The notes under the pieces were generated by a model that saw only the letters and a program-made list of their open reading frames with translations, did not search any database and was not told the DNA's origin. A DNA stretch of 32,000 nt from contig NZ_NVQC01000022.1 of assembly GCF_003044035.1 (NCBI RefSeq), positions 30,001 to 62,000 on the forward strand, given 5' to 3'. This stretch comes from Candidatus Methylomirabilis limnetica (GTDB taxonomy: Bacteria; Methylomirabilota; Methylomirabilia; Methylomirabilales; Methylomirabilaceae). The position numbers and the translations under genes are program-made. How positions within the stretch are numbered: position 1 is the stretch's first letter; each line of letters begins with the position of its first letter. Below are positions 1 to 32,000 of this stretch, piece after piece.

Positions 1-1
1 A

Positions 2-958
2 TTAAGGCCAGAGGATGTCGTAACCGTCAAAGACTGGCCCGTCCTTGCAAACGAGGCGGTAGGTCCGACCTGCTTGGCTGGCAGACAGGTCTTGTTCGCC
101 ACCCTTCACCGGTACGACGCAGCCCATGCAGGCCCCGAAGCCGCAGGCCATGCTCGCTTCCATGGAGGCCTGATAGGGCAGCTCATATTTTTCGGCAATC
201 GTCGCAAGAGCCGCCAGCATGGGATGCGGGCCGCAGGCGTAAATCCCCCCAACCCCCCTTTTATAAAGGGGGGAACTGGCGGATTTGGGGTGCGAGGTGT
301 TGAGATACTGCTCCAGCAGTTCGGTCACCAACCCTTTCTGACCGGCGCTGCCATCTTCTGTGGCCACGTGAATCTTTGCGCCGACCCGCTTAAAATCGAC
401 GGTACACAGCAGATCAGCCTTAGATCTCCCGCCGAGAAAGACGGTCATCTTCGTTTCGCGTGATGCTCGGCGCGTGGCAAGACCCTCAGCAAGGGCGGCA
501 ATCGGAGGGACACCGATTCCGCCAGCAACCAGGAACACCTCCGTTGCGGAACGTGGAACCTCAAAGCCGTTCCCCAAGGGGCCGAGAGCCCGGAGGGACC
601 TACCTGGACGCATCGTCGCCAGGAGCGCCGTCCCGCGGCCACACACCTTGTACAAAATCTCTACCTCGCACCCCGGATCGGTGTCCGGGGCAGGCCCCGC
701 ACGCCAAATCCCCCCGTGCCCCTTAAATCCCCCCGTGCCCCCCTTTGATAAAGGGGGGTTGGGGGGGGTTTTTACACTTCGGATGCTCAAGGCTCGAGGC
801 AGCAGCGGATCCAGTCCATCTGTACATCCAAGCATGAGAAACTGGCCAGGGCGGAATCTGGCCAGGTATCGAGGGCCAACCAGACGCATCGAAAAGTACT
901 CCGGTGCGATCTGCCGATTGGACACCACTTCAACTTGGACCTCAGATGCCGTCGCCAT
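2..958 (-). CDS. pyrK: Dihydroorotate dehydrogenase (class 1B) electron-transfer subunit PyrK, carrying two in-frame repeat-derived inserts
   Basis: ORF 2..967 (-). Ferredoxin-reductase-type motifs are present: RALSI (RxxS FAD motif), CGRGT, LGPLGNGF, VAGGIGVPP, ACGPHPML. The C-terminal 2Fe-2S Cys cluster is CGFGACMGCV...CKDGPVF. ATG at 958 has GAGGGG about 8 nt upstream; GTG at 967 is the alternative start. It is the last visible gene of the minus-strand pyr operon. Confidence 0.9.
   Translation of the reverse strand: MATASEVQVEVVSNRQIAPEYFSMRLVGPRYLARFRPGQFLMLGCTDGLDPLLPRALSIRSVKTPPNPPLSKGGTGGFKGHGGIWRAGPAPDTDPGCEVEILYKVCGRGTALLATMRPGRSLRALGPLGNGFEVPRSATEVFLVAGGIGVPPIAALAEGLATRRASRETKMTVFLGGRSKADLLCTVDFKRVGAKIHVATEDGSAGQKGLVTELLEQYLNTSHPKSASSPLYKRGVGGIYACGPHPMLAALATIAEKYELPYQASMEASMACGFGACMGCVVPVKGGEQDLSASQAGRTYRLVCKDGPVFDGYDILWP
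241..286. repeat. C6/G6 palindromic repeat element, copy A (inverted, degenerate), inside the pyrK CDS
   Basis: AAATCCCCCCAACCCCCCTTTTATAAAGGGGGGAACTGGCGGATTT. It has the same architecture as copies at 706-773, 973-1020 and 6069-6114: AAATC6-3nt-C6-TTT, an AT-rich loop, then AAA-G6-...-ATTT. Confidence 0.8.
706..773. repeat. C6/G6 palindromic repeat element, copy B (with duplicated left arm), inside the pyrK CDS
   Basis: AAATCCCCCCGTGCCCC (706-722) is followed by TTAAATCCCCCCGTGCCCCCCTTTGATAAAGGGGGGTTGGGGGGGGTTTTT (723-773). It is near-identical to the intergenic copies C and D. Confidence 0.85.
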
Positions 959-972
959 TCCCCGCACCCCTC

Positions 973-1020
973 AAATCCCCCCGTGCCCCCCTTTACCAAA
1001 GGGGGGTTGGAGGGGGTTTT
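973..1020. repeat. C6/G6 palindromic repeat element, copy C, intercistronic between carB and pyrK
   Basis: AAATCCCCCCGTGCCCCCCTTTACCAAAGGGGGGTTGGAGGGGGTTTT. It fills most of the 968-1056 spacer between the carB stop and the pyrK start. Confidence 0.85.
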
Positions 1021-1056
1021 GCACTTCGCACATAGGGCAGCCACAAGGGACTGCCC

Positions 1057-4335
<3,279 letters not shown>

Positions 4336-4369
4336 AGCTGCAAGACTCCCGCTGATTGAACCTCACACG

Positions 4370-4564
4370 TCAAGCGACAGCGTACTCCACGGATTTAGGA
4401 TTCTGGACCCGCTTGGATGCGTTGAGGATTTCCATGCCCACAATGTTCCCGTCCTTGTCGTAGTCCAGAATTACCCCTGGTTTGTCCTGGTCACTCTCCT
4501 CAACCTGTGCGTCACTAAATTCGATTGTGAGTACATCCACTTCTTGGTCATATTTGACCTTCAT
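4370..4564 (-). CDS. DUF2283-family small protein (putative antitoxin-like partner)
   Basis: The reading MKVKYDQEVDVLTIEFSDAQVEESDQDKPGVILDYDKDGNIVGMEILNASKRV matches the DUF2283 pattern (YD.e.D.l.i......v......g.i.d.d..G.i.GiEil.as). GGAGGG precedes the ATG. The ATG at 4564 overlaps the upstream gene's TGA (ATGA overlap). The longer track ORF 4370..4660 has an implausible N-terminal extension. Confidence 0.75.
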   Translation of the reverse strand: MKVKYDQEVDVLTIEFSDAQVEESDQDKPGVILDYDKDGNIVGMEILNASKRVQNPKSVEYAVA

Positions 4565-4818
4565 GGCACCCTCCAGTACTTGCTGATCTTGCTTGTCCGG
4601 TACACGGTGACCACAACGGGGGGATCGACCGTTTCGTTGACCATCACCCGCAAGAGACAAGGCTTTCCCTCGATTTCTACCTGAGATTGATAGCAGGTAA
4701 CGTTGTCCACCTCAGGTACTTTCTGTTCCGGCCCTTGTAAAACCTGCTCCAAGAGCTTTCGCGAAATCTTACGTCTATCTAGTTCCTCATGCAGATGCTT
4801 AGAGTAGTGGAACCTCAC
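4561..4818 (-). CDS. DUF4258-family small protein (putative toxin-like partner)
   Basis: VRFHYSKHLHEELDRRKISRKLLEQVL... fits the DUF4258 N-terminal pattern (i.fs.HA...m..R.I....v..vl). GTG at 4818 has GAGGA about 9 nt upstream. The track start (TTG at 4842, TTGA overlap with the carA stop) is the alternative. Confidence 0.65.
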   Translation of the reverse strand: MRFHYSKHLHEELDRRKISRKLLEQVLQGPEQKVPEVDNVTCYQSQVEIEGKPCLLRVMVNETVDPPVVVTVYRTSKISKYWRVP

Positions 4819-4838
4819 CGTTCTGCATCCTCGATCAA

Positions 4839-6050
4839 TCAACCCTTCGCGCCCTCCCGGTTGCGCTTGCTCGCCATGAGGTCCACGAAGCGCTGAAAGA
4901 GGTAGCTGGCGTCATGGGGACCAGGGGAGGCTTCCGGGTGGTATTGCACCGAAAAGATCGGGAGGCGACGATGTCGCATCCCCTCGACGGTTTGGTCGTT
5001 GAGATTGATGTGGGTCAGCTCGATCTCTTTATCCGGGATCGAGGCGATGTCCAAGGCAAAGCCGTGATTCTGGGTGGTGATCTCCACCTTCCCGGTCGTC
5101 AGATCCTTGACAGGCTGGTTCCCGCCGTGATGACCGAACTTCAGTTTGTAGGTCCGTCCCCCGAGGGCGAGACCCAGGATCTGATGGCCCAAGCAGATGC
5201 CGAAGATCGGCGCGGCGCCAATCAGCTTTTGCACGTTGTCAATCAGATACGGCACGCCCTCCGGGTCGCCGGGGCCATTACTCACGAAGACCCCATCCGG
5301 GGCCAAACCCATGACCGTGGACGCAGGAGTATCCGGAGGAACCACCGTCACGTCGCACCCTGCCTCTACCAACCTCCGCAGGATATTCAACTTGATCCCG
5401 CAGTCGTAGGCCACCACACGGAAGGGTTTATGGGTTAGGGTAGAGGGGTTAGGGAACAGCGCGAGCTGATCTGCCAACTCGAAACTCGAAACTCGAAACT
5501 CGAAACTGCCTTCGTACCCCTTTCCCAATTGCCACGGTCCCTCGCGCCACGTGTAGGGCGAGGTACAGGCCACCTCTTTCACCAAATCGCGACCGATCAG
5601 GCCAGGCGAGGCCTTGGCCTTGGCAATCAGGCTATCTGGGTTCAGGTCTCTTGTTGAGATCACCCCTTCCATCGCCCCATGGTCCCTCAGATGCCTGGTG
5701 AGCGCCCTGGTATCGATCCCCTGAATTCCCACGACGCCCTGCTCTTTAAGGTAGCTGTCAAGGGTCCGAGTGCTGCGCCAATTGCTTGGGTAGGGGCTCG
5801 CCTCCTTCACAATGAACCCCTCCACGGCCGGCACTGTTGACTCGACGTCCTCAGGGTTGATGCCGTAGTTGCCGATCAGAGGATAGGTCATCACGACCAT
5901 CTGGCCCTTGTACGAGGGGTCGGTCAGGACCTCCTGGTATCCGGTCATGCTGGTGTTGAAGACCACCTCACCGACGGTCTCCCCTTCTGCGCCGAAGGAG
6001 ACACCCTCGAAGATGGCGCCATCGGCCAGCGTCAATAACGCCTGCTTCAT
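4839..6050 (-). CDS. carA: Carbamoyl-phosphate synthase small (glutaminase) subunit, with a repeat-derived linker insert
   Basis: 403-aa ORF. N-terminus [47 protein letters not shown]. Class-I GATase motifs are present: [10 protein letters not shown] (catalytic Cys) and [13 protein letters not shown]. Confidence 0.97.
5424..5510. repeat. Heptamer-tandem-repeat element inside the carA CDS
   Basis: On the plus strand: GGGTTTA TGGGTTAG GGTAGAG GGGTTAG GGAACAG, a 16-nt spacer, then (AACTCGA)x4 at 5476-5503 plus partial AACTGCC. On the coding strand this is (GTTTCGA)n ... CCCTAAC-type heptamers, translated as [24 protein letters not shown]. Confidence 0.85.
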
Positions 6051-6068
6051 AAGCGTCCCTTGTCCCCC

Positions 6069-6114
6069 AAATCCCCCCGTGCCCCCCTTTTAGAAAGGGG
6101 GGATGGGGAGATTT
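6069..6114. repeat. C6/G6 palindromic repeat element, copy D, intercistronic between pyrC and carA
   Basis: AAATCCCCCCGTGCCCCCCTTTTAGAAAGGGGGGATGGGGAGATTT, within the 6051-6138 spacer. Confidence 0.85.
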
Positions 6115-6138
6115 CGCATACCGTGCTTCGCACTCTCA

Positions 6139-7482
6139 TCACGCCTCCCAGACCACCTTGCCAGCGACAAGCGTCGCCACAGCCTGCCCCTTAAGCCGCC
6201 AGCCGTGGAAGGGGGTATTGCGGCTTTTCGACACAAAGGCGCCCGCGTCCACCTCCCACTCCCGAGTCGGATCAAAGATCGTCAGATCAGCGTCGGCGCC
6301 TTCGGCAATGCGTCCCTTTGGGAGCTTCAGGATGCGCGCGGGCTCGCTGGTGAACTTCCCCATCGCCTGCGAGAGTGTGAGTACTCCAGGATGCACCAGG
6401 GTTGTGATCGTCACGGCGAGTGCCGTCTCCAGACCGATCACCCCGAAGGGTGCCTGATCGAACTCCTGCTCTTTCTCCTGGACCGTGTGAGGGGCGTGAT
6501 CTGTCGCGATCACGTCGATGGTTCCGTCTCGCAGGCCCTCGATCAGGGCTTGCCGGTCGGCCTCGGACCGAAGCGGCGGATTCATCTTGGCGTGAGTACT
6601 GAAGCCACGGACCGCCTCCTCCGTGAGCGCCAGGTGATGCGGGGTCACCTCGCAGCTCACCCGGACCCCGCGGGCCTTGGCCTCGCGGATCAGACGTACC
6701 GATTCGGCTGCGCTCACGTGCGCAATGTGGAGTCTCGCGCCAGTCAGCTCCGCCAGGAGGATATCTCGCGCTACCATCACCGCCTCCGAGGCTGAGGGGA
6801 TGCCACGAAGCCCGAGATCGGTCGAGACGAACCCCTCATGGACCACGCCCCTGCCGCTCAGGTGCAGATCCTCACTATGCTGGATAACCGGCAGGTCAAA
6901 CATCGCCGCGTACTCCATGGCCCGCCGCATCAGTTCGGGGCTCATCACCGGCCGACCATCATCGGAGATAGCGACGCAGCCAGCCTCGAATAGCTCTCCG
7001 ATCTCGGCCAGCTCCTCCCCTTTCATCCCCTTCGTGATGGCGCCAACGGGGTACACCCGAACGACCCCCTCGCGCTTGGCCGCGTCAAGGATGAACTCGG
7101 TAACAGCGCGCGTGTCGTTTACCGGGTCGGTGTTCGGCATACAGCAAACCGCCGTAAAACCCCCCCGCGCCGCAGCCATCGTTCCGCTCGCAATGGTCTC
7201 TTTATCCTCACGTCCTGGCTGGCGCAGGTGGACATGCATGTCGATCAACCCCGGACAGACCACCAACCCTGTGGCATCCATCACCCGATCAATGGACTCT
7301 ACTCCTGCTGTCTGGGATCTCGAATTCTTTGATGTCTTCCCGTTTCCCCGGGTGTTAAGAGTGGGTTCTGCCGTGCTCCGGCCTAACCTTATAATCTTCC
7401 CGTCTTCTATGAGGAGATCCAGGATTTCATCGACCGCATTTGCAGGATCGATGACTCGACCACCCTTGATCAGAATCCGCAT
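6139..7482 (-). CDS. pyrC: Dihydroorotase
   Basis: 447-aa ORF. Amidohydrolase metal motifs are present: PGLIDMHVHLRQPG (HxH) and VIATDHAPH. Its position between pyrB and carA fits the operon. Confidence 0.95.
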   Translation of the reverse strand: MRILIKGGRVIDPANAVDEILDLLIEDGKIIRLGRSTAEPTLNTRGNGKTSKNSRSQTAGVESIDRVMDATGLVVCPGLIDMHVHLRQPGREDKETIASGTMAAARGGFTAVCCMPNTDPVNDTRAVTEFILDAAKREGVVRVYPVGAITKGMKGEELAEIGELFEAGCVAISDDGRPVMSPELMRRAMEYAAMFDLPVIQHSEDLHLSGRGVVHEGFVSTDLGLRGIPSASEAVMVARDILLAELTGARLHIAHVSAAESVRLIREAKARGVRVSCEVTPHHLALTEEAVRGFSTHAKMNPPLRSEADRQALIEGLRDGTIDVIATDHAPHTVQEKEQEFDQAPFGVIGLETALAVTITTLVHPGVLTLSQAMGKFTSEPARILKLPKGRIAEGADADLTIFDPTREWEVDAGAFVSKSRNTPFHGWRLKGQAVATLVAGKVVWEA

Positions 7483-7502
7483 GAGAGCTCCCTCACCCGC
7501 CT

Positions 7503-8432
7503 TTATCCCGCCTGCCCGCCGCCAGCAATGAGGTAGAGCAAGGCCATCCGCACGGCCAGGCCATTTTCCACCTGATTGAGGATCAGCGAATAGGGCCCAT
7601 CGGCGACGTCTGGCGCAATCTCCACGCCCCGATTGATCGGGCCGGGGTGCATGATCAGCACATTAGGCTTTGCAGCCTTCAGCCGTTCTACGGTGAGACC
7701 GAACAGGCGAGAGTACTCTCGCAGCGAGGGAAACAGCCCGGCCTGTTGGCGCTCGACCTGAAGTCTCAGCATCATGATGACGTCGACCTCGGCGATGGCT
7801 CGATCGAGGTTCGTAAAGACCTCAACGCCGAGTCGCTCGACGAAACGGGGAAGCATCGTCCGGGGCCCTGCAACCCGCACCTCCATCCCCATCTTCTGCA
7901 TCCCATGAATGTTGCTCCTGGCGACCCGGCTATGAGTGATGTCGCCGATAATGGCTGCCTTGAGTCCCTCCAGTCGCCCCACCTTCTCCCTGATGGTGAA
8001 GAGGTCGAGCAGGGCCTGGCTGGGATGCTCGTGAGCGCCATCGCCGGCGTTGATGATCGGCGCCGCAAGTCGCTTGGCCAGGAATTCTGCCGCTCCAGCG
8101 GATGGATGGCGGATAACCACGACGTCCGGGTGCATTGCTTGCAGCGTCAGGCCGGTATCCTTCAGACTCTCCCCCTTGGCCACCGAACTGGACGAGATGG
8201 AGATATTGACGACGTCGGCGCTCAGCCACTTGCCTGCGATCTCAAAGGATGTCCGGGTCCGCGTGCTGGGCTCGTAGAAGAGATTGATCAGGGTCTTGCC
8301 GCGCAGGGCCGGCACCTTCTTGATGTCGCGGCGGGCCACCTCCTTCATCGACTCGGCAGTATCCAAGATCAGCCGGATCTCGTCTACCGTCAGCTCCCGC
8401 ATGCTCAACAGATCTTTTCCTGCCAGGCCCAT
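7503..8432 (-). CDS. pyrB: Aspartate carbamoyltransferase catalytic subunit
   Basis: 309-aa ORF with [11 protein letters not shown] (carbamoyl-phosphate binding STRTR), [11 protein letters not shown] and MHPGPINRG motifs. Confidence 0.97.
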
Positions 8433-20424: not shown

Positions 20425-20466
20425 GTAACTACTAAGGTGGATAGACCGAAGGCTGAAGGCTGTTAG
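20425..20466. repeat. Solo terminal inverted-repeat copy of the CTGAAGG-heptamer MITE
   Basis: GTAACTACTAAGGTGGATAGACCGAAGGCTGAAGGCTGTTAG aligns with the left TIR of the element at 23216-23376 (GTAACTGCTCAGGTAGATAGACTGAAGGCTGAAGGCTTTTAG). Confidence 0.7.
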
Positions 20467-23215: not shown

Positions 23216-23376
23216 GTAACTGCTCAGGTAGATAGACTGAAGGCTGAAGGCTTTTAGGGGTAAGCCGCGTGATTATTTAAAACCCCGAGAAGGTCTTGAG
23301 GGGCTCGGTTCGTACCCTCTGATATAATTTAGAGCCTTCAGCCTTCAGTCTTCAGCCTAAACACCTGAGTAGTTAC
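23216..23376. mobile_element. 161-bp MITE-like element with about 40-bp TIRs that contain inverted heptamer tandem repeats
   Basis: Left end: GTAACTGCTCAGGTAGATAGA(CTGAAGG)x2CT. Right end: AG(CCTTCAG)x2 TCTTCAG CCTAAACACCTGAGTAGTTAC. CGAATG is present on both flanks (23210-23215 and 23379-23384). It is non-coding and lies between iaaA and the AI-2E gene. Confidence 0.8.
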
Positions 23377-24642: not shown

Positions 24643-24667
24643 CTTCGGAAATTGTGCGCTACCGCGG

Positions 24668-25069
24668 TTAATAGCCGCCCCTGCGACCGCCGCCACCGCC
24701 GCCGCCACCGCCGCCGCTACCGCCGCCGCCGCGATATCCGCCACCGCCGCCGCTGCTGCTACCACCACCACTGCGATATCCGCCACCACCGCCACCACCG
24801 CCACCACTTCGGCGAGGAGCCTGTTCTTTTGCCTCATTGACCGTCAGCGCCCGACCACCAACATCTCGCCCATTCAAGGCCTGGATAGCGGCCTCAGCGT
24901 CGCTCGGACTCTCCATCTCAACGAAGGCAAAGCCCCGGGGTCGTCCAGTATCACGATCTGTAATGATCTTGACATCGGTGACCTTACGATCACCCTCTTC
25001 AAAGAGGGTGCGGAGCGCAGATGCATCCGTATCAAACGGGAGATTACCAACATACACTCGTGTTCCCAT
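24668..25069 (-). CDS. RRM-type RNA-binding protein with glycine/arginine-rich C-terminal tail
   Basis: RNP-2 VYVGNL and RNP-1 RGFAFVEM are present. The tail reads RRSGGGGGGGGGYRSGGGSSSGGGGGYRGGGGSGGGGGGGGGGRRGGY. ATG 25069 is preceded by GGAAGGAG. The track ORF start 25165 adds an unsupported N-terminal extension. Confidence 0.92.
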   Translation of the reverse strand: MGTRVYVGNLPFDTDASALRTLFEEGDRKVTDVKIITDRDTGRPRGFAFVEMESPSDAEAAIQALNGRDVGGRALTVNEAKEQAPRRSGGGGGGGGGYRSGGGSSSGGGGGYRGGGGSGGGGGGGGGGRRGGY

Positions 25070-29592: not shown

Positions 29593-32000
29593 GTGCATAG
29601 CTTTCGGCAAGTGATAGTGGATGAGATTCTCCCTGCAGTGAGTAAGCCGTCCCGGTACATCGGGATGGAATGGAACGCCATCAAGAAGGACCCCGCCAAC
29701 GCTAAAGTCAAAGTCGCGTTAGCCTTTCCCGATACGTACGAAATCGGCATGTCCCATCTGGGCCTGAAGATCCTGTACCAGATCCTGAACCGGCGGCCGG
29801 AGTTTATGGCGGAGCGGGCCTATGCGCCGTGGGTGGATGCGGAGCGGCTGCTGCGGCAGCAGAGGGTTCCACTCTGCACCATTGAATCCGGCTACAGCCT
29901 GGCGGATTTCGACCTGATTGGCTTCACGCTGCAGTACGAACTCTCCTACACGACGCTCCTGAACATGCTGGACCTGGCCGGTATCCCGCTCCAGAGCGAG
30001 CAGCGCCGCGAAGGGGATCCATTCGTGATCGCGGGTGGTCCTGTCGCCTTCAACCCGGAGCCGATCGCCGACTTTATCGACCTATTCCTGCTCGGCGATG
30101 CGGAGGAAGCGATTATAGAGATCTGCGAAGCGGTCATGCAGTGGAAAGCAACGGGGGGGCCGCGTGAAGAGCTCCTCGAGGCATGGGCCAAGATCGAAGG
30201 CTGCTACGTGCCCGCGCTCCACCAGGGCGAGACGATTCGCAAGCGGACAGCGATCCACCTCGATGGGATCGACTATGGCGCGTTTCTGGTCCCATTCATG
30301 GAGATCGTTCACGACCGCGTCAGTATCGAGGTGATGCGTGGATGTACGCAGGGGTGCCGCTTCTGTCAAGCCGGCTACATCTACCGACCGCTTCGAGAGC
30401 GATCCGCCGAGGAGATCATGCAGATGACCCTGCAGGCAAGACGAGGGACGGGGTATGAAGAGGTCTCGCTAGGCTCGTTGAGCATCGCCGATCTGACCGA
30501 TCTCCCTCATCTTATCCACCCGCTCATGGAGGATCTCTTGCCGGAGAAGATCTCGCTGTCCCTCCCCTCCCTGCGGGTTGAAGCCCTGAACCGTTTTCCG
30601 CAGGTGGCCGAGGAGATCGGACGGGTTCGAAAGACCGGCTTCACCATCGCGCCGGAGGCCGGAAGCCAGCGGCTTAGAAAGGTGATCAATAAGGAGGGGT
30701 TCGACGAGGAACAGATCTTCATGGCCGTGAGGAATGCCGCCAAATCCGGCTGGGAGTCGGTGAAATTCTACTTTATGATTGGGCTCCCGACCGAGACGCA
30801 GACGGACCTGGACGAGATGATTCGCATCACGCGGGAATCGGCGCGGATCGCGCGGGCGGAGTCGGCTCGAGGCTTTGGGCTGACAGTCAGTACCTCCTCG
30901 TTCGTCCCGAAGCCCCACACCCCATTCCAGTGGTACGCACAGGAGCCGATGGATATCCTCAAGGAAAAGCAGGATTTCCTGAAGCGAAAGTTACGAGAGG
31001 CGAAAGTGTCGTACAAGTGGCATCATGTCCAGTCCTCCTTCCTGGAGGCGGTCTTCTCCCTGGGTGACCGCTCACTTGGTCGAGCCATCCTTCGTGGCTA
31101 TGAACTCGGGTGTCGGCTTGACGGCTGGACTGAACATCTGAGGTTCGACCTATGGATGCAGGCCTTCGACGAGACAGGGATCGATCCGAAGGCGATCGCT
31201 AATCGGCCGCGCAATCTGGATGAACCGCTACCGTGGGATCATATCGACATCGGCGTCAACAAGTCGTTCCTACAGCGAGAGTACAAGAAGGCGTTAGAGG
31301 TCCGCGGGACGGCCGATTGTCACACGGCTCCATGCACGGCCTGTGGCGAGATCTGCCAGCCCAACTGGCCAACCTGGGCGGAGAAGGTCGGAATGAAAGT
31401 TTCGGGTCCAGAGTTTCGAGTTTCGAGTTCGACGTGCGTTGTTCCTGGCGCTGAACCCGAAATTCAAAACTCAAAACTCAAAACTTTATATGAAGCGCCC
31501 GTTCAGCGCATCCGGTTTATTTTTCAGAAGATCGGGGTGCTGCGGTATCTTTCGCACCTGGAGTTAATGAAGGCGTTGGGCCGGGCGGTGCGTCGGGCTC
31601 GGATAGCCGTAGCCTACTCCCAGGGGTATAACCCCCAACCAAAACTCGCGTGTGCCATGGCGCTTCCAGTGGGGGTCGAGGGGTGGCAGGAATTGGCGGA
31701 CATCGAGTTGAGCGCGGCCATAGCCCCAGAGGAGTTGGTGGCACGAGTCAATCGGTCCCTGGCACCGGAGCTACACCTGCTCCGAGCCTGGGAGGTTCCA
31801 TTGGCGTCGCCCTCGCTTACACCGTTGGTGCGGGAGCTCAACTATCGAGTCTCATTGCCGTTGGATAGCTCCTCCCAGGAGATCCGAGTGAAGCTCAGCT
31901 CCCAGGCGCTCTGCAATGAGTGGCTCGATCGGCCAAGCATCCCGGTCCGCGTCAGGCGAAAGGATAGGCTCGTGGATGTCGATGTCCGGCCGCAGATCCT
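29593..32000 (+). CDS. B12-binding-domain radical SAM protein (TIGR03960-like) fused to a DUF2344/TIGR03936-like domain; 3' end beyond the window
   Basis: This ORF is not in the supplied ORF track. I translated frame 1 by hand and found it open from the TGA at 29590 to the window end. GTG 29593 has AAGGAG 8 nt upstream. The sequence reads ...LPAVSKPSRYIGMEWNAIKKD..., with radical-SAM cluster motif RGCTQGCRFCQAG, then ...PKPHTPFQW... The DUF2344-like part is RIRFIFQKIGVLRYLSHLELMKALGRAVRRARIAVAYSQGYNPQPK. Confidence 0.85.
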   Translation, partial: MHSFRQVIVDEILPAVSKPSRYIGMEWNAIKKDPANAKVKVALAFPDTYEIGMSHLGLKILYQILNRRPEFMAERAYAPWVDAERLLRQQRVPLCTIESGYSLADFDLIGFTLQYELSYTTLLNMLDLAGIPLQSEQRREGDPFVIAGGPVAFNPEPIADFIDLFLLGDAEEAIIEICEAVMQWKATGGPREELLEAWAKIEGCYVPALHQGETIRKRTAIHLDGIDYGAFLVPFMEIVHDRVSIEVMRGCTQGCRFCQAGYIYRPLRERSAEEIMQMTLQARRGTGYEEVSLGSLSIADLTDLPHLIHPLMEDLLPEKISLSLPSLRVEALNRFPQVAEEIGRVRKTGFTIAPEAGSQRLRKVINKEGFDEEQIFMAVRNAAKSGWESVKFYFMIGLPTETQTDLDEMIRITRESARIARAESARGFGLTVSTSSFVPKPHTPFQWYAQEPMDILKEKQDFLKRKLREAKVSYKWHHVQSSFLEAVFSLGDRSLGRAILRGYELGCRLDGWTEHLRFDLWMQAFDETGIDPKAIANRPRNLDEPLPWDHIDIGVNKSFLQREYKKALEVRGTADCHTAPCTACGEICQPNWPTWAEKVGMKVSGPEFRVSSSTCVVPGAEPEIQNSKLKTLYEAPVQRIRFIFQKIGVLRYLSHLELMKALGRAVRRARIAVAYSQGYNPQPKLACAMALPVGVEGWQELADIELSAAIAPEELVARVNRSLAPELHLLRAWEVPLASPSLTPLVRELNYRVSLPLDSSSQEIRVKLSSQALCNEWLDRPSIPVRVRRKDRLVDVDVRPQI
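31396..31487. repeat. Heptamer-tandem-repeat hairpin element inside the radical-SAM CDS (domain linker)
   Basis: (GAGTTTC)x2 GAGTTCG at 31411-31431, a 32-nt spacer, then (TCAAAAC)x3 at 31464-31484. The reverse complement of the second array is GTTTTGA-type, so the two arrays form imperfect inverted repeats. It is translated as SGPEFRVSSSTCVVPGAEPEIQNSKLKTL. Confidence 0.8.

Follow-up and report, generated by a model that had tools for sequence, protein, structure and literature searches.

A dispersed palindromic repeat read in-frame within a loop of PyrK in Candidatus Methylomirabilis limnetica

PyrK is the electron-transfer subunit of class 1B dihydroorotate dehydrogenase, and the pyrK gene found in a 32,000-nucleotide stretch of Candidatus Methylomirabilis limnetica DNA (contig NZ_NVQC01000022.1, positions 30,001 to 62,000; hereafter the window) contains two copies of one palindromic element, each translated in-frame as part of the protein. 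This raises the question of why a palindrome should persist inside the coding sequence of such a gene, and in particular what the second copy (insert 2, positions 241–286) represents. An earlier note on this DNA had argued that two independent insertions, both preserving the frame, point to selection on function. Our analysis favours a different answer, and we estimate the probability at nearly four in five that 241–286 is a copy of a short non-autonomous palindrome, similar to repetitive extragenic palindromes (REPs) and Rickettsia palindromic elements (RPEs), which is tolerated in a flexible loop of PyrK and is harmless there.

The sequence of 241–286 (AAATCCCCCCAACCCCCCTTTTATAAAGGGGGGAACTGGCGGATTT, identical to that quoted in the earlier note) belongs to a multi-copy dispersed palindromic repeat of about 46 nt, the imperfect consensus of which reads AAATCCCCCC-GTG-CCCCCCTTT-loop-AAAGGGGGG-TTG-GGGGGATTT. 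When up to three mismatches were allowed, the 22-nt consensus of the left arm (AAATCCCCCCGTGCCCCCCTTT) matched the window four times, against 0.00 matches expected from 100 shuffles. Three of these matches lie on the plus strand without any mismatch (725–746, 973–994, and 6069–6090), and the fourth, with three mismatches, lies on the minus strand at 265–286. Compared with a profile of 24 copies, the 46 nt at 241–286 gave an E-value of 9e-11 (1e-11 to 1e-15 for family copies) and scored 40.1 bits on the minus strand versus 27.4 bits on the plus strand. Because the minus-strand score is the higher, this copy is inverted relative to the other three; it is also the most degenerate of the four, and the description of insert 2 as an inverted, more degenerate copy of the palindrome in insert 1 is thereby confirmed. 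The window copies all fold into a hairpin with a stem of two tiers and an internal mismatch. Calculated for DNA, the folding energies lie between -15.7 and -18.6 kcal/mol and the z-scores between -2.5 and -3.9; the hairpin at 241–286 has values of -15.7 kcal/mol and z = -2.8. Three substitutions in the outer left arm of this copy weaken its outer stem, which is decaying.

The minus-strand open reading frame (ORF) spanning this copy (2..958/967) encodes a recognisable PyrK. Its best NCBIfam matches are models of the dihydroorotate dehydrogenase electron transfer subunit, all of them below curated cut-offs, and its sequence matches in the PDB are 5ksw_B, 1ep3_B, and 1ep1_B. The product shares 100% identity with a protein of Ca. 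Methylomirabilis limnetica, and an alignment of 37 sequences shows no variation at any of the four [2Fe-2S] cysteines or in the NAD/FAD motifs. Insert 2 lies wholly inside this conserved gene, in-frame and without a stop codon, and pyrK is otherwise intact. The insert is read on the minus strand as KSASSPLYKRGVGG, just ahead of the IYACGP strand as the earlier note had it, and the product contains ...LNTSHPKSASSPLYKRGVGGIYACGPHPML... around this position. Predicted peptides that span the insert include SASSPLYK and GVGGIYACGPHPMLAALATIAEK.

The position of insert 2 in the protein was mapped by alignment and by structure prediction. In the alignment with Lactococcus PyrK, a gap of 13–14 residues falls at 'shpksassplykr', and the same segment also corresponds to a gap against 5ksw_B and 1ep3_B. 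An AlphaFold2 model of PyrK, built on 37 homologues (predicted local distance difference test score, pLDDT, of 70.5), has as its best PDB fold matches the PyrK structures 5ksw_B and 1ep1_B. In this model, insert 2 (residues ~223–235) is composed of coil and one four-residue helix (231–234) and is flanked by helix 211–222 and strand 236–243 (IYACGP), with pLDDT values of ~59–70 that drop below 50 at residues 228–230. Its position corresponds to the loop joining the last helix to the last strand of the NAD-binding domain. Insert 1 (residues 64–96) is modelled as coil with pLDDT of ~36–41. As modelled, insert 2 maps to a surface loop that is compatible with the fold. Helix-to-strand loops in Rossmann-like and alpha/beta folds generally face away from the nucleotide-binding (cofactor) cleft, and by analogy the loop carrying insert 2 would be expected on the side away from this cleft.

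The loop between the GLVT and YACG motifs was then compared across 120 PyrK homologues (P0001–P0120). In the window PyrK it measures 27 aa, compared with 17–18 aa in the outgroups and in the majority of Methylomirabilota PyrKs, which rules out the possibility, raised in the earlier note as a way to refute its claim, that this loop length is simply normal for the clade. Other lineages have loops of 24, 25, 31, 32, 38, 39 aa and more, up to 65 aa. Element-free homologues exist: the DNA of three relatives (L042, L043, and L048) has no element at the insert-2 site, where the codons instead consist of a heptanucleotide repeated in tandem (CACACCCGACACCCGACACCCGACACC, (CACACCC)n or (GACGCTC)n), in a tract of three heptamers. 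The window reads ACC TCG CAC CCC at this site, followed by the element and then by TAC GCC. The heptamer-derived flank to the left of insert 2 is common to the left flanks of other copies and to the (CACCTCG/CACCCCG)n tract in the loop of element-free relatives. In total, 42 nt of the element (14 codons, K...G) stand for 15 nt (5 codons) of heptamer tract, a net gain of nine codons. The loop is therefore longer because of the repeat, as the earlier note had stated, but the excess of 14–15 aa that it had matched to the 46-nt element overestimates the gain. Similarly, the copy at 973–1018 lies between heptamer units resembling GGGGTGC and replaces 13 nt found in L042 and L132, which are element-free there. 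The pair P0018/P0068, ideal to judge by the tree, was rejected as a clean empty/filled comparison because the whole loop region differs between them, probably by recombination.

Across Methylomirabilota, PyrK is hypervariable in both of its loops and at the C-terminus, and the protein ranges from 271 to 350 aa. Contributors to this variation are (CACCTCG)n tracts read as HLAPRTS repeats in 7-aa steps, a 'APRQGRSKQRPY' unit, 'PPPFPPPRRGEGEGGG', and C-terminal 'NWSIPSI..DQTDQTD' extensions.

The element is also read in-frame in a range of other proteins, listed in the table below. The copies embedded in coding sequences (CDS) use either orientation and all three phases (0, 1, and 2), representing five of the six possible combinations. 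Whatever the frame, the arms of the element are free of stop codons. Of the six frames, five are open in 82–93% of 60 copies, whereas the sixth, which is the one used by insert 2 in the window, is open in 28% of them and depends on the loop sequence. Since multiple orientations and phases are used, it is the DNA that is conserved and not any peptide, and the peptides are by-products. For a possible decayed copy in the window pyrC, at the site occupied in a close relative, the alignment was unconvincing, and the 16-residue segment found there (LGRSTAEPTLNTRGNG) looks unrelated.

Among relatives, the element occurs at the insert-2 site in either orientation, and neither its codon position nor its length differs between the two. 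The forward state (C6-GTG/GTT-C6 ... G6-TT-G6) is found in the window, L046, L132, and L133, and the reverse state (C6-AT-C6 ... G6-CAC/TAC-G6) in L045 and L047. Profile scores split the orientations in the window, L045, L046, and L047, with 54.8 versus 33.5 bits in L047 and 51.8 versus 32.6 bits in L046. A single codon position is thus occupied by the peptide KSPRSPLYKRGVGG in the forward state versus KSPHPPFTKGGHGG in the reverse state. L132 (forward) and L045 (reverse) come from different contigs of the same metagenome sample (ERZ27280322). In a neighbour-joining tree of PyrK for which the variable loops were masked, sequences that carry the element here are limited to one of two large Methylomirabilota clades, where its presence is patchy, and the forward and reverse states are intermixed.

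A further allele (L131:190-783, P0083) contains, within one pyrK loop, a reverse copy followed by (CACCCCG)3 and a truncated forward copy that lacks GTGCCCCCC. This tandem allele is a possible intermediate toward the forward-only and reverse-only alleles, since a deletion that runs from one of its shared outer arms to another would yield either single-copy form with identical junctions. Alternatively, the two states could have arisen by inversion between the 10-nt outer arms; the loop of the reverse form (TTTACAAAA) is not the exact reverse complement of that of the forward form (TTTATAAAA). The same polymorphism is seen in FolC, which in different lineages carries the element at one site in the forward (L026, L201) or the reverse (L156, L165/L170) orientation.

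The repeat is present at other places in the window and in many further genomes, and the earlier note's claim also withstood its other proposed refutation, that the repeat might not be found elsewhere in the genome. The exact 22-mer occurs at 41 loci in the species-representative genome set, and a 31-base core at 68 metagenome loci. The records with the 22-mer are labelled Methylomirabilota, Nitrospirota (including Thermodesulfovibrionia), several Desulfobacterota families, Dehalococcoidia, Aminicenantes, Eubacteriales, Baltobacteraceae, and Pseudomonadota, about eight phyla by label. Because the G+C content flanking the copies ranges from ~0.40 to 0.68, mis-binning of Methylomirabilis DNA cannot account for all of them. 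The right arm lay outside the search pattern and is conserved as AAAGGGGGG-(T/G/A)TG-GGGGGGATTT, and the GTG/TTG internal mismatch is therefore a feature of the family. In 60 distinct copies the element is 44–50 nt long, with a mode of 46 nt. The exact 22-mer was absent from IMG/VR, and plasmids gave no blastn match, although the low-complexity filter may mask such a query.

Two sub-families can be distinguished. The first has cgcac(c/t)tcgcac heptamer flanks and is labelled Methylomirabilota wherever a record title exists. The second consists of a unit of ~110 nt, TAACCCC.ATGCCC.GGCG.GGGCACAAC.AAACATGA-[palindrome]-TCATATAAA, found on Syntrophaceae-labelled genome contigs and many metagenome contigs. 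Heptamer flanks (CGCAC/GCACC/GCACT) are present to the left of 10 and to the right of 11 of the 60 copies, mostly at loci with a G7-TG-G6 right arm, including labelled Methylomirabilota. The ~110-nt unit, which resembles a MITE (miniature inverted-repeat transposable element), was identified at L135, L136, L142, L144-L146, L148, L150, L162, L167, L176, L180, L182, L002, L006, and L031; its palindrome is perfect or nearly so, with CAC opposite GTG in some copies.

A looser core, CCCCCCTTT-N3-AAAGGGGGG-N3-GGGGGG(G)ATTT (C6TTT-N3-AAAG6-N3-G6), matched 82 viral or proviral contigs in IMG/VR (L049-L130) with 0.38–0.72 G+C. Most of these matches have no complementary outer left arm. Their sequences suggest a much wider super-family of related hairpins.

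Based on these observations, we propose that the element entered a heptanucleotide-repeat tract encoding a surface loop of PyrK. With stop-free arms and five of six frames usually open, it could have been read through as a Pro/Gly-rich peptide that lengthens a flexible loop. Insertions breaking the frame or the fold of pyrK would have been purged, whereas a harmless copy would persist, and the insert is probably neutral or nearly so. The preservation of the frame is thus best read as purifying selection on pyrK and not as a function of the insert. The earlier note's appeal to selection holds to the extent that survivorship accounts for what is seen, with no frame-breaking insert observed in pyrK, but there is no sign that the insert itself functions: its orientation, tandem arrangement, and presence vary, many frames are used, and the copy at 241–286 is decaying, all of which argues against a role at the level of the peptide. 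The element could have spread by copy-in through ectopic recombination or template switching, via flanking C-run/heptamer homology and the shared outer arms; replacement without duplication, the C-rich heptamer tracts, and the shared outer arms favour this route. Alternatively, it may have been mobilised by a putative trans-acting enzyme that recognises the hairpin, for which the near-identity across phyla leaves room.

Several observations weigh against a simple insertion of tolerated, selfish DNA. No clean empty site or target-site duplication was visible in either filled/empty comparison (pyrK insert 2 and the carB-pyrK spacer); both showed replacement instead, of 15 and 13 nt, respectively, so that "insertion" is something we infer. 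No recurrent transposase or REP-associated tyrosine transposase (RAYT) was detected in a Pfam scan of the 81 neighbouring ORFs that flank the 41 genome copies, and these ORFs matched only unrelated housekeeping families. No adjacent insertion sequence (IS) was identified either, as the 400 nt upstream of ~20 Syntrophaceae-type copies are conserved for only ~45 nt. Furthermore, the sequence is conserved almost base for base across phyla, which is unusual for DNA that is purely selfish and decaying and suggests a conserved recognition factor or recent horizontal spread. Finally, the window copies are all located within 6 kb of the pyrimidine cluster, and a relative carries a copy in pyrC, which could hint at a local regulatory role.

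This last point underlies the strongest alternative, in which the palindromes act in cis, as RNA or DNA structures, to regulate the pyrimidine cluster, serving for example as an mRNA stabiliser or as a processing, translational pause, or protein-binding site, and the copies within coding sequences are kept for that reason, with the peptide as a by-product. All four window copies fall within pyrC-carA-carB-pyrK (241–6114) and none in the remaining 26 kb, two of them sit exactly in intercistronic spacers, and in relatives the same spacer, both pyrK sites, and the pyrC gene itself are occupied by copies. The stability of the hairpins and nucleotide-level conservation irrespective of frame would also fit such a role, and REPs are known as elements of 3'-untranslated regions and of mRNA stability. 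However, each of these positions is free of the element in close relatives whose gene order is unchanged (L042 has none), its orientation at one site varies, and insert 2 in the window is losing its outer stem. Elsewhere the element is located beside or within unrelated genes (TIM, Hsp70, H+-PPase, PriA, LeuRS), and a search of window positions 1–8000 against Rfam returned no match at E<=1. We consider regulation of the cluster an improbable explanation for these copies.

The odds are longer still for an adaptive loop extension, whereby a Pro/Gly-rich peptide was selected for changing PyrK function, partner binding, or stability. The insert is kept in a whole sub-clade (P0001-P0012, 73–100% identity), PLYKRGVGG is fairly constant among the forward alleles, and the model places a short helix (231–234) inside the insert. 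However, the same site in other relatives holds a different, reverse-orientation peptide, two elements (L131), other repeats, or nothing, and the peptides differ by frame in other host proteins. The confidence of the model in this region is low to moderate, a helix-to-strand loop would generally point away from the cofactor cleft, and survivorship alone accounts for the preserved frame. That the segment arose in situ, by local heptamer expansion and mutation or normal loop variation, with a coincidental resemblance to the palindrome or an assembly artefact behind it, is hardly credible, for although the loop is a repeat-expansion hot spot (the 25, 32, and 39 aa alleles differ by 7-aa, or 21-nt, steps) and the C-run/3-nt/C-run pattern of the arm resembles CCCCGCACCCC heptamers, the 46 nt match a dispersed family end to end, across the loop and both arms, related alleles (L046, L047) carry near-perfect copies, and the recurrence of the same allele in independent assemblies from NCBI, ENA, Logan, and JGI rules out an artefact.

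Palindromic repeats inside genes are already known, and both REPs and RPEs have been documented there, including in DnaE and tRNA synthetase genes (PMC3733652, PMC10969869). The element of this study works like these repeats without being a member of the RPEs, the tagged REPs, or the MITEs. Similar to the RPEs of Rickettsia (Ogata et al.), it is a dispersed palindrome that appears in-frame in unrelated housekeeping genes, sometimes twice per gene, leaves the ORF intact, and forms inserts of a kind described as compatible with the fold. In contrast to it, RPEs are ~100–150 bp long and confined to Rickettsia, whereas the element measures ~46 nt and its host genomes are labelled as several phyla. 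The element does not have the CGTC tag of RPE-4 and RPE-6. Within each RPE family the encoded peptide is described as conserved, whereas the element is read in at least five combinations of orientation and phase. Its exclusion from the RPE families proper is based on length (44–50 nt) and host (Methylomirabilota) and not on sequence comparison.

The GTAG/CGTC REPs associated with RAYTs (Di Nocera et al, 2013; PMC3733652) are likewise short, G+C-rich imperfect palindromes found as singletons and inverted dimers. They are mostly intergenic, with a minority wholly inside ORFs, and their hosts include DnaE/DnaE2 and tRNA-synthetase genes (PMC3733652). The terminal tetranucleotide GTAG or CGTC that defines them (PMC3733652), or its complement, was found at the ends of only 0–2 of the 60 distinct copies for each tag, and no REPtron/RAYT was seen among the ORFs neighbouring the 41 genome copies. 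Unlike REPs, the element has a stem of two tiers in which an internal mismatch, GTG opposite TTG, is conserved. Descriptions of REP families have them species-specific or common to several species, whereas the element is nearly identical in genomes labelled as about eight phyla. Intragenic MITEs such as ERIC, Correia, and BOX (PMC10969869) are also non-autonomous, have an inverted-repeat architecture, and can create in-frame fusions, and the Syntrophaceae-type unit of ~110 nt that contains the palindrome is MITE-like. The element itself is a single hairpin with no target-site duplication and no cognate IS found, and its core is far shorter than MITEs.

Tracts of (CACCTCG/CACCCCG)n contain or adjoin the element at pyrK, in the spacer between carB and pyrK, and in the case of many Methylomirabilota copies. 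Cyanobacterial small dispersed repeats of 21–27 nt reportedly show a comparable preference, lying inside tandem heptanucleotide repeats (short tandemly repeated repetitive sequences, STRR) and other repeats. The same nesting is evident in the tract at pyrK insert 2, in the REV-(CACCCCG)3-FWD arrangement of L131, and in the spacer copy between GGGGTGC-like units. The cyanobacterial repeats differ from the element in phylum and in sequence. The searchable literature contained nothing relevant on palindromic repeats of Methylomirabilis or on the peptide and DNA motifs of the element.

The unusual features of this element are its cross-phylum sequence identity and its orientation polymorphism at the same site. 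A tentative further proposal, which we consider possible but doubtful, is that the two-tier hairpin is actively and horizontally spreading through groundwater and sediment communities (about eight labelled phyla), homes to C-rich heptamer tracts including those in essential genes, and flips or is replaced in situ, so that one codon alternates between KSPRSPLYKRGVGG and KSPHPPFTKGGHGG. If so, this would imply a trans-acting recognition system and a general route to hypervariable loops in core enzymes. Should the cross-phylum identity reflect such an active system, the element would offer a handle on a new mobilisation mechanism.

The intrusion of palindromes into essential genes extends beyond Rickettsia and a few REP-rich proteobacteria, and occurs in Methylomirabilota, which oxidise methane in a nitrite-dependent manner, as well as in the Nitrospirota, Desulfobacterota, and Chloroflexota that co-occur with them. 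For PyrK, the effect is a protein with two loops and a C-terminus made hypervariable and with lengths spread over 271–350 aa. Such inserts also depress the scores of family models, as with the sub-threshold NCBIfam matches of this PyrK, and can mislead alignment-based phylogeny; the repeats may add to the fragmentation of short-read assemblies.

Table 1. Location of pyrK, the palindromic element, and its in-frame host genes. Coordinates with dots refer to the window; L numbers denote loci in other genomes and metagenomes.
Feature	Position or locus	Strand	Description
pyrK CDS	2..958	-	318 aa from ATG at 958; GTG at 967 also possible; intact
Insert 2	241..286	-	degenerate ~46-nt palindrome, canonical orientation on coding strand; phase 0: K-S-A-S-S-P-L-Y-K-R-G-V-G-G-I-(Y)
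Heptamer-derived left flank of insert 2	287..297	-	CCTCGCACCCC; together with A298, codons T-S-H-P
Insert 1	725..770	+	same palindrome, opposite orientation relative to pyrK; read as KTPPNPPLSKGGTGGF
Partial left-arm tandem duplicate	~700-724	+	AAATCCCCCCGTGCCCCTT; adjoins insert 1; partial profile match at 706-722
Intergenic copy	973..1018	+	between carB stop (1057) and pyrK start (958)
Intergenic copy	6069..6114	+	between pyrC stop (6139) and carA start (6050)
Radical SAM+DUF2344 protein	L001, L041		interdomain linker; Pfam-verified
DnaE	L011		between HHH and OB domains; Pfam-verified
LeuRS	L014		editing domain; Pfam-verified
FolC (Mur-ligase family)	L026, L201, L156, L165		forward in L026 and L201, reverse in L156 and L165; Pfam-verified
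IspE	L037		Pfam-verified
PriA	L159		Pfam-verified
PyrC of close relative	L134:6662-8344	-	86% identical to window PyrC (6139-7482, -); intact element in-frame after residue 32; Pfam-verified
Partial copies			type IIG restriction-modification enzyme; protein with phosphatidylglycerol lysyltransferase C-terminal (LPG_synthase_C) domain; Pfam-verified

The partial duplicate adjoining insert 1 supplies the PyrK residues 'KGHGGIW'. Heptamer repeats were also identified elsewhere in the window. The carA gene (4839..6050, minus strand) contains a perfect in-frame tandem of AACTCGA (4.6 units) at 5476–5507, and the AACTCGA repeat family, present in inverted form at 31398–31445, encodes 'QFPVSSFKFRVV' at the insert-1 site of pyrK in P0005, P0006, and P0008. 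Further heptamer arrays (GAAGGCT, CTGAAGG, AGCCTTC, GAGTTTC, AAACTCA) are located at 20448–20462, 23237–23252, 23333–23358, 31411–31429, and 31460–31485. Repeats of this kind look to be a general trait of the genome, as are STRR in cyanobacteria. The carA-carB pair is interrupted by two small overlapping ORFs of 96 and 93 aa (4370–4842, minus strand). Positions 24662–24820 contain a long imperfect CCG/CCA-rich repeat with periods of 3, 9, 12, and 42, the minus strand of which would encode a Gly-rich tract.

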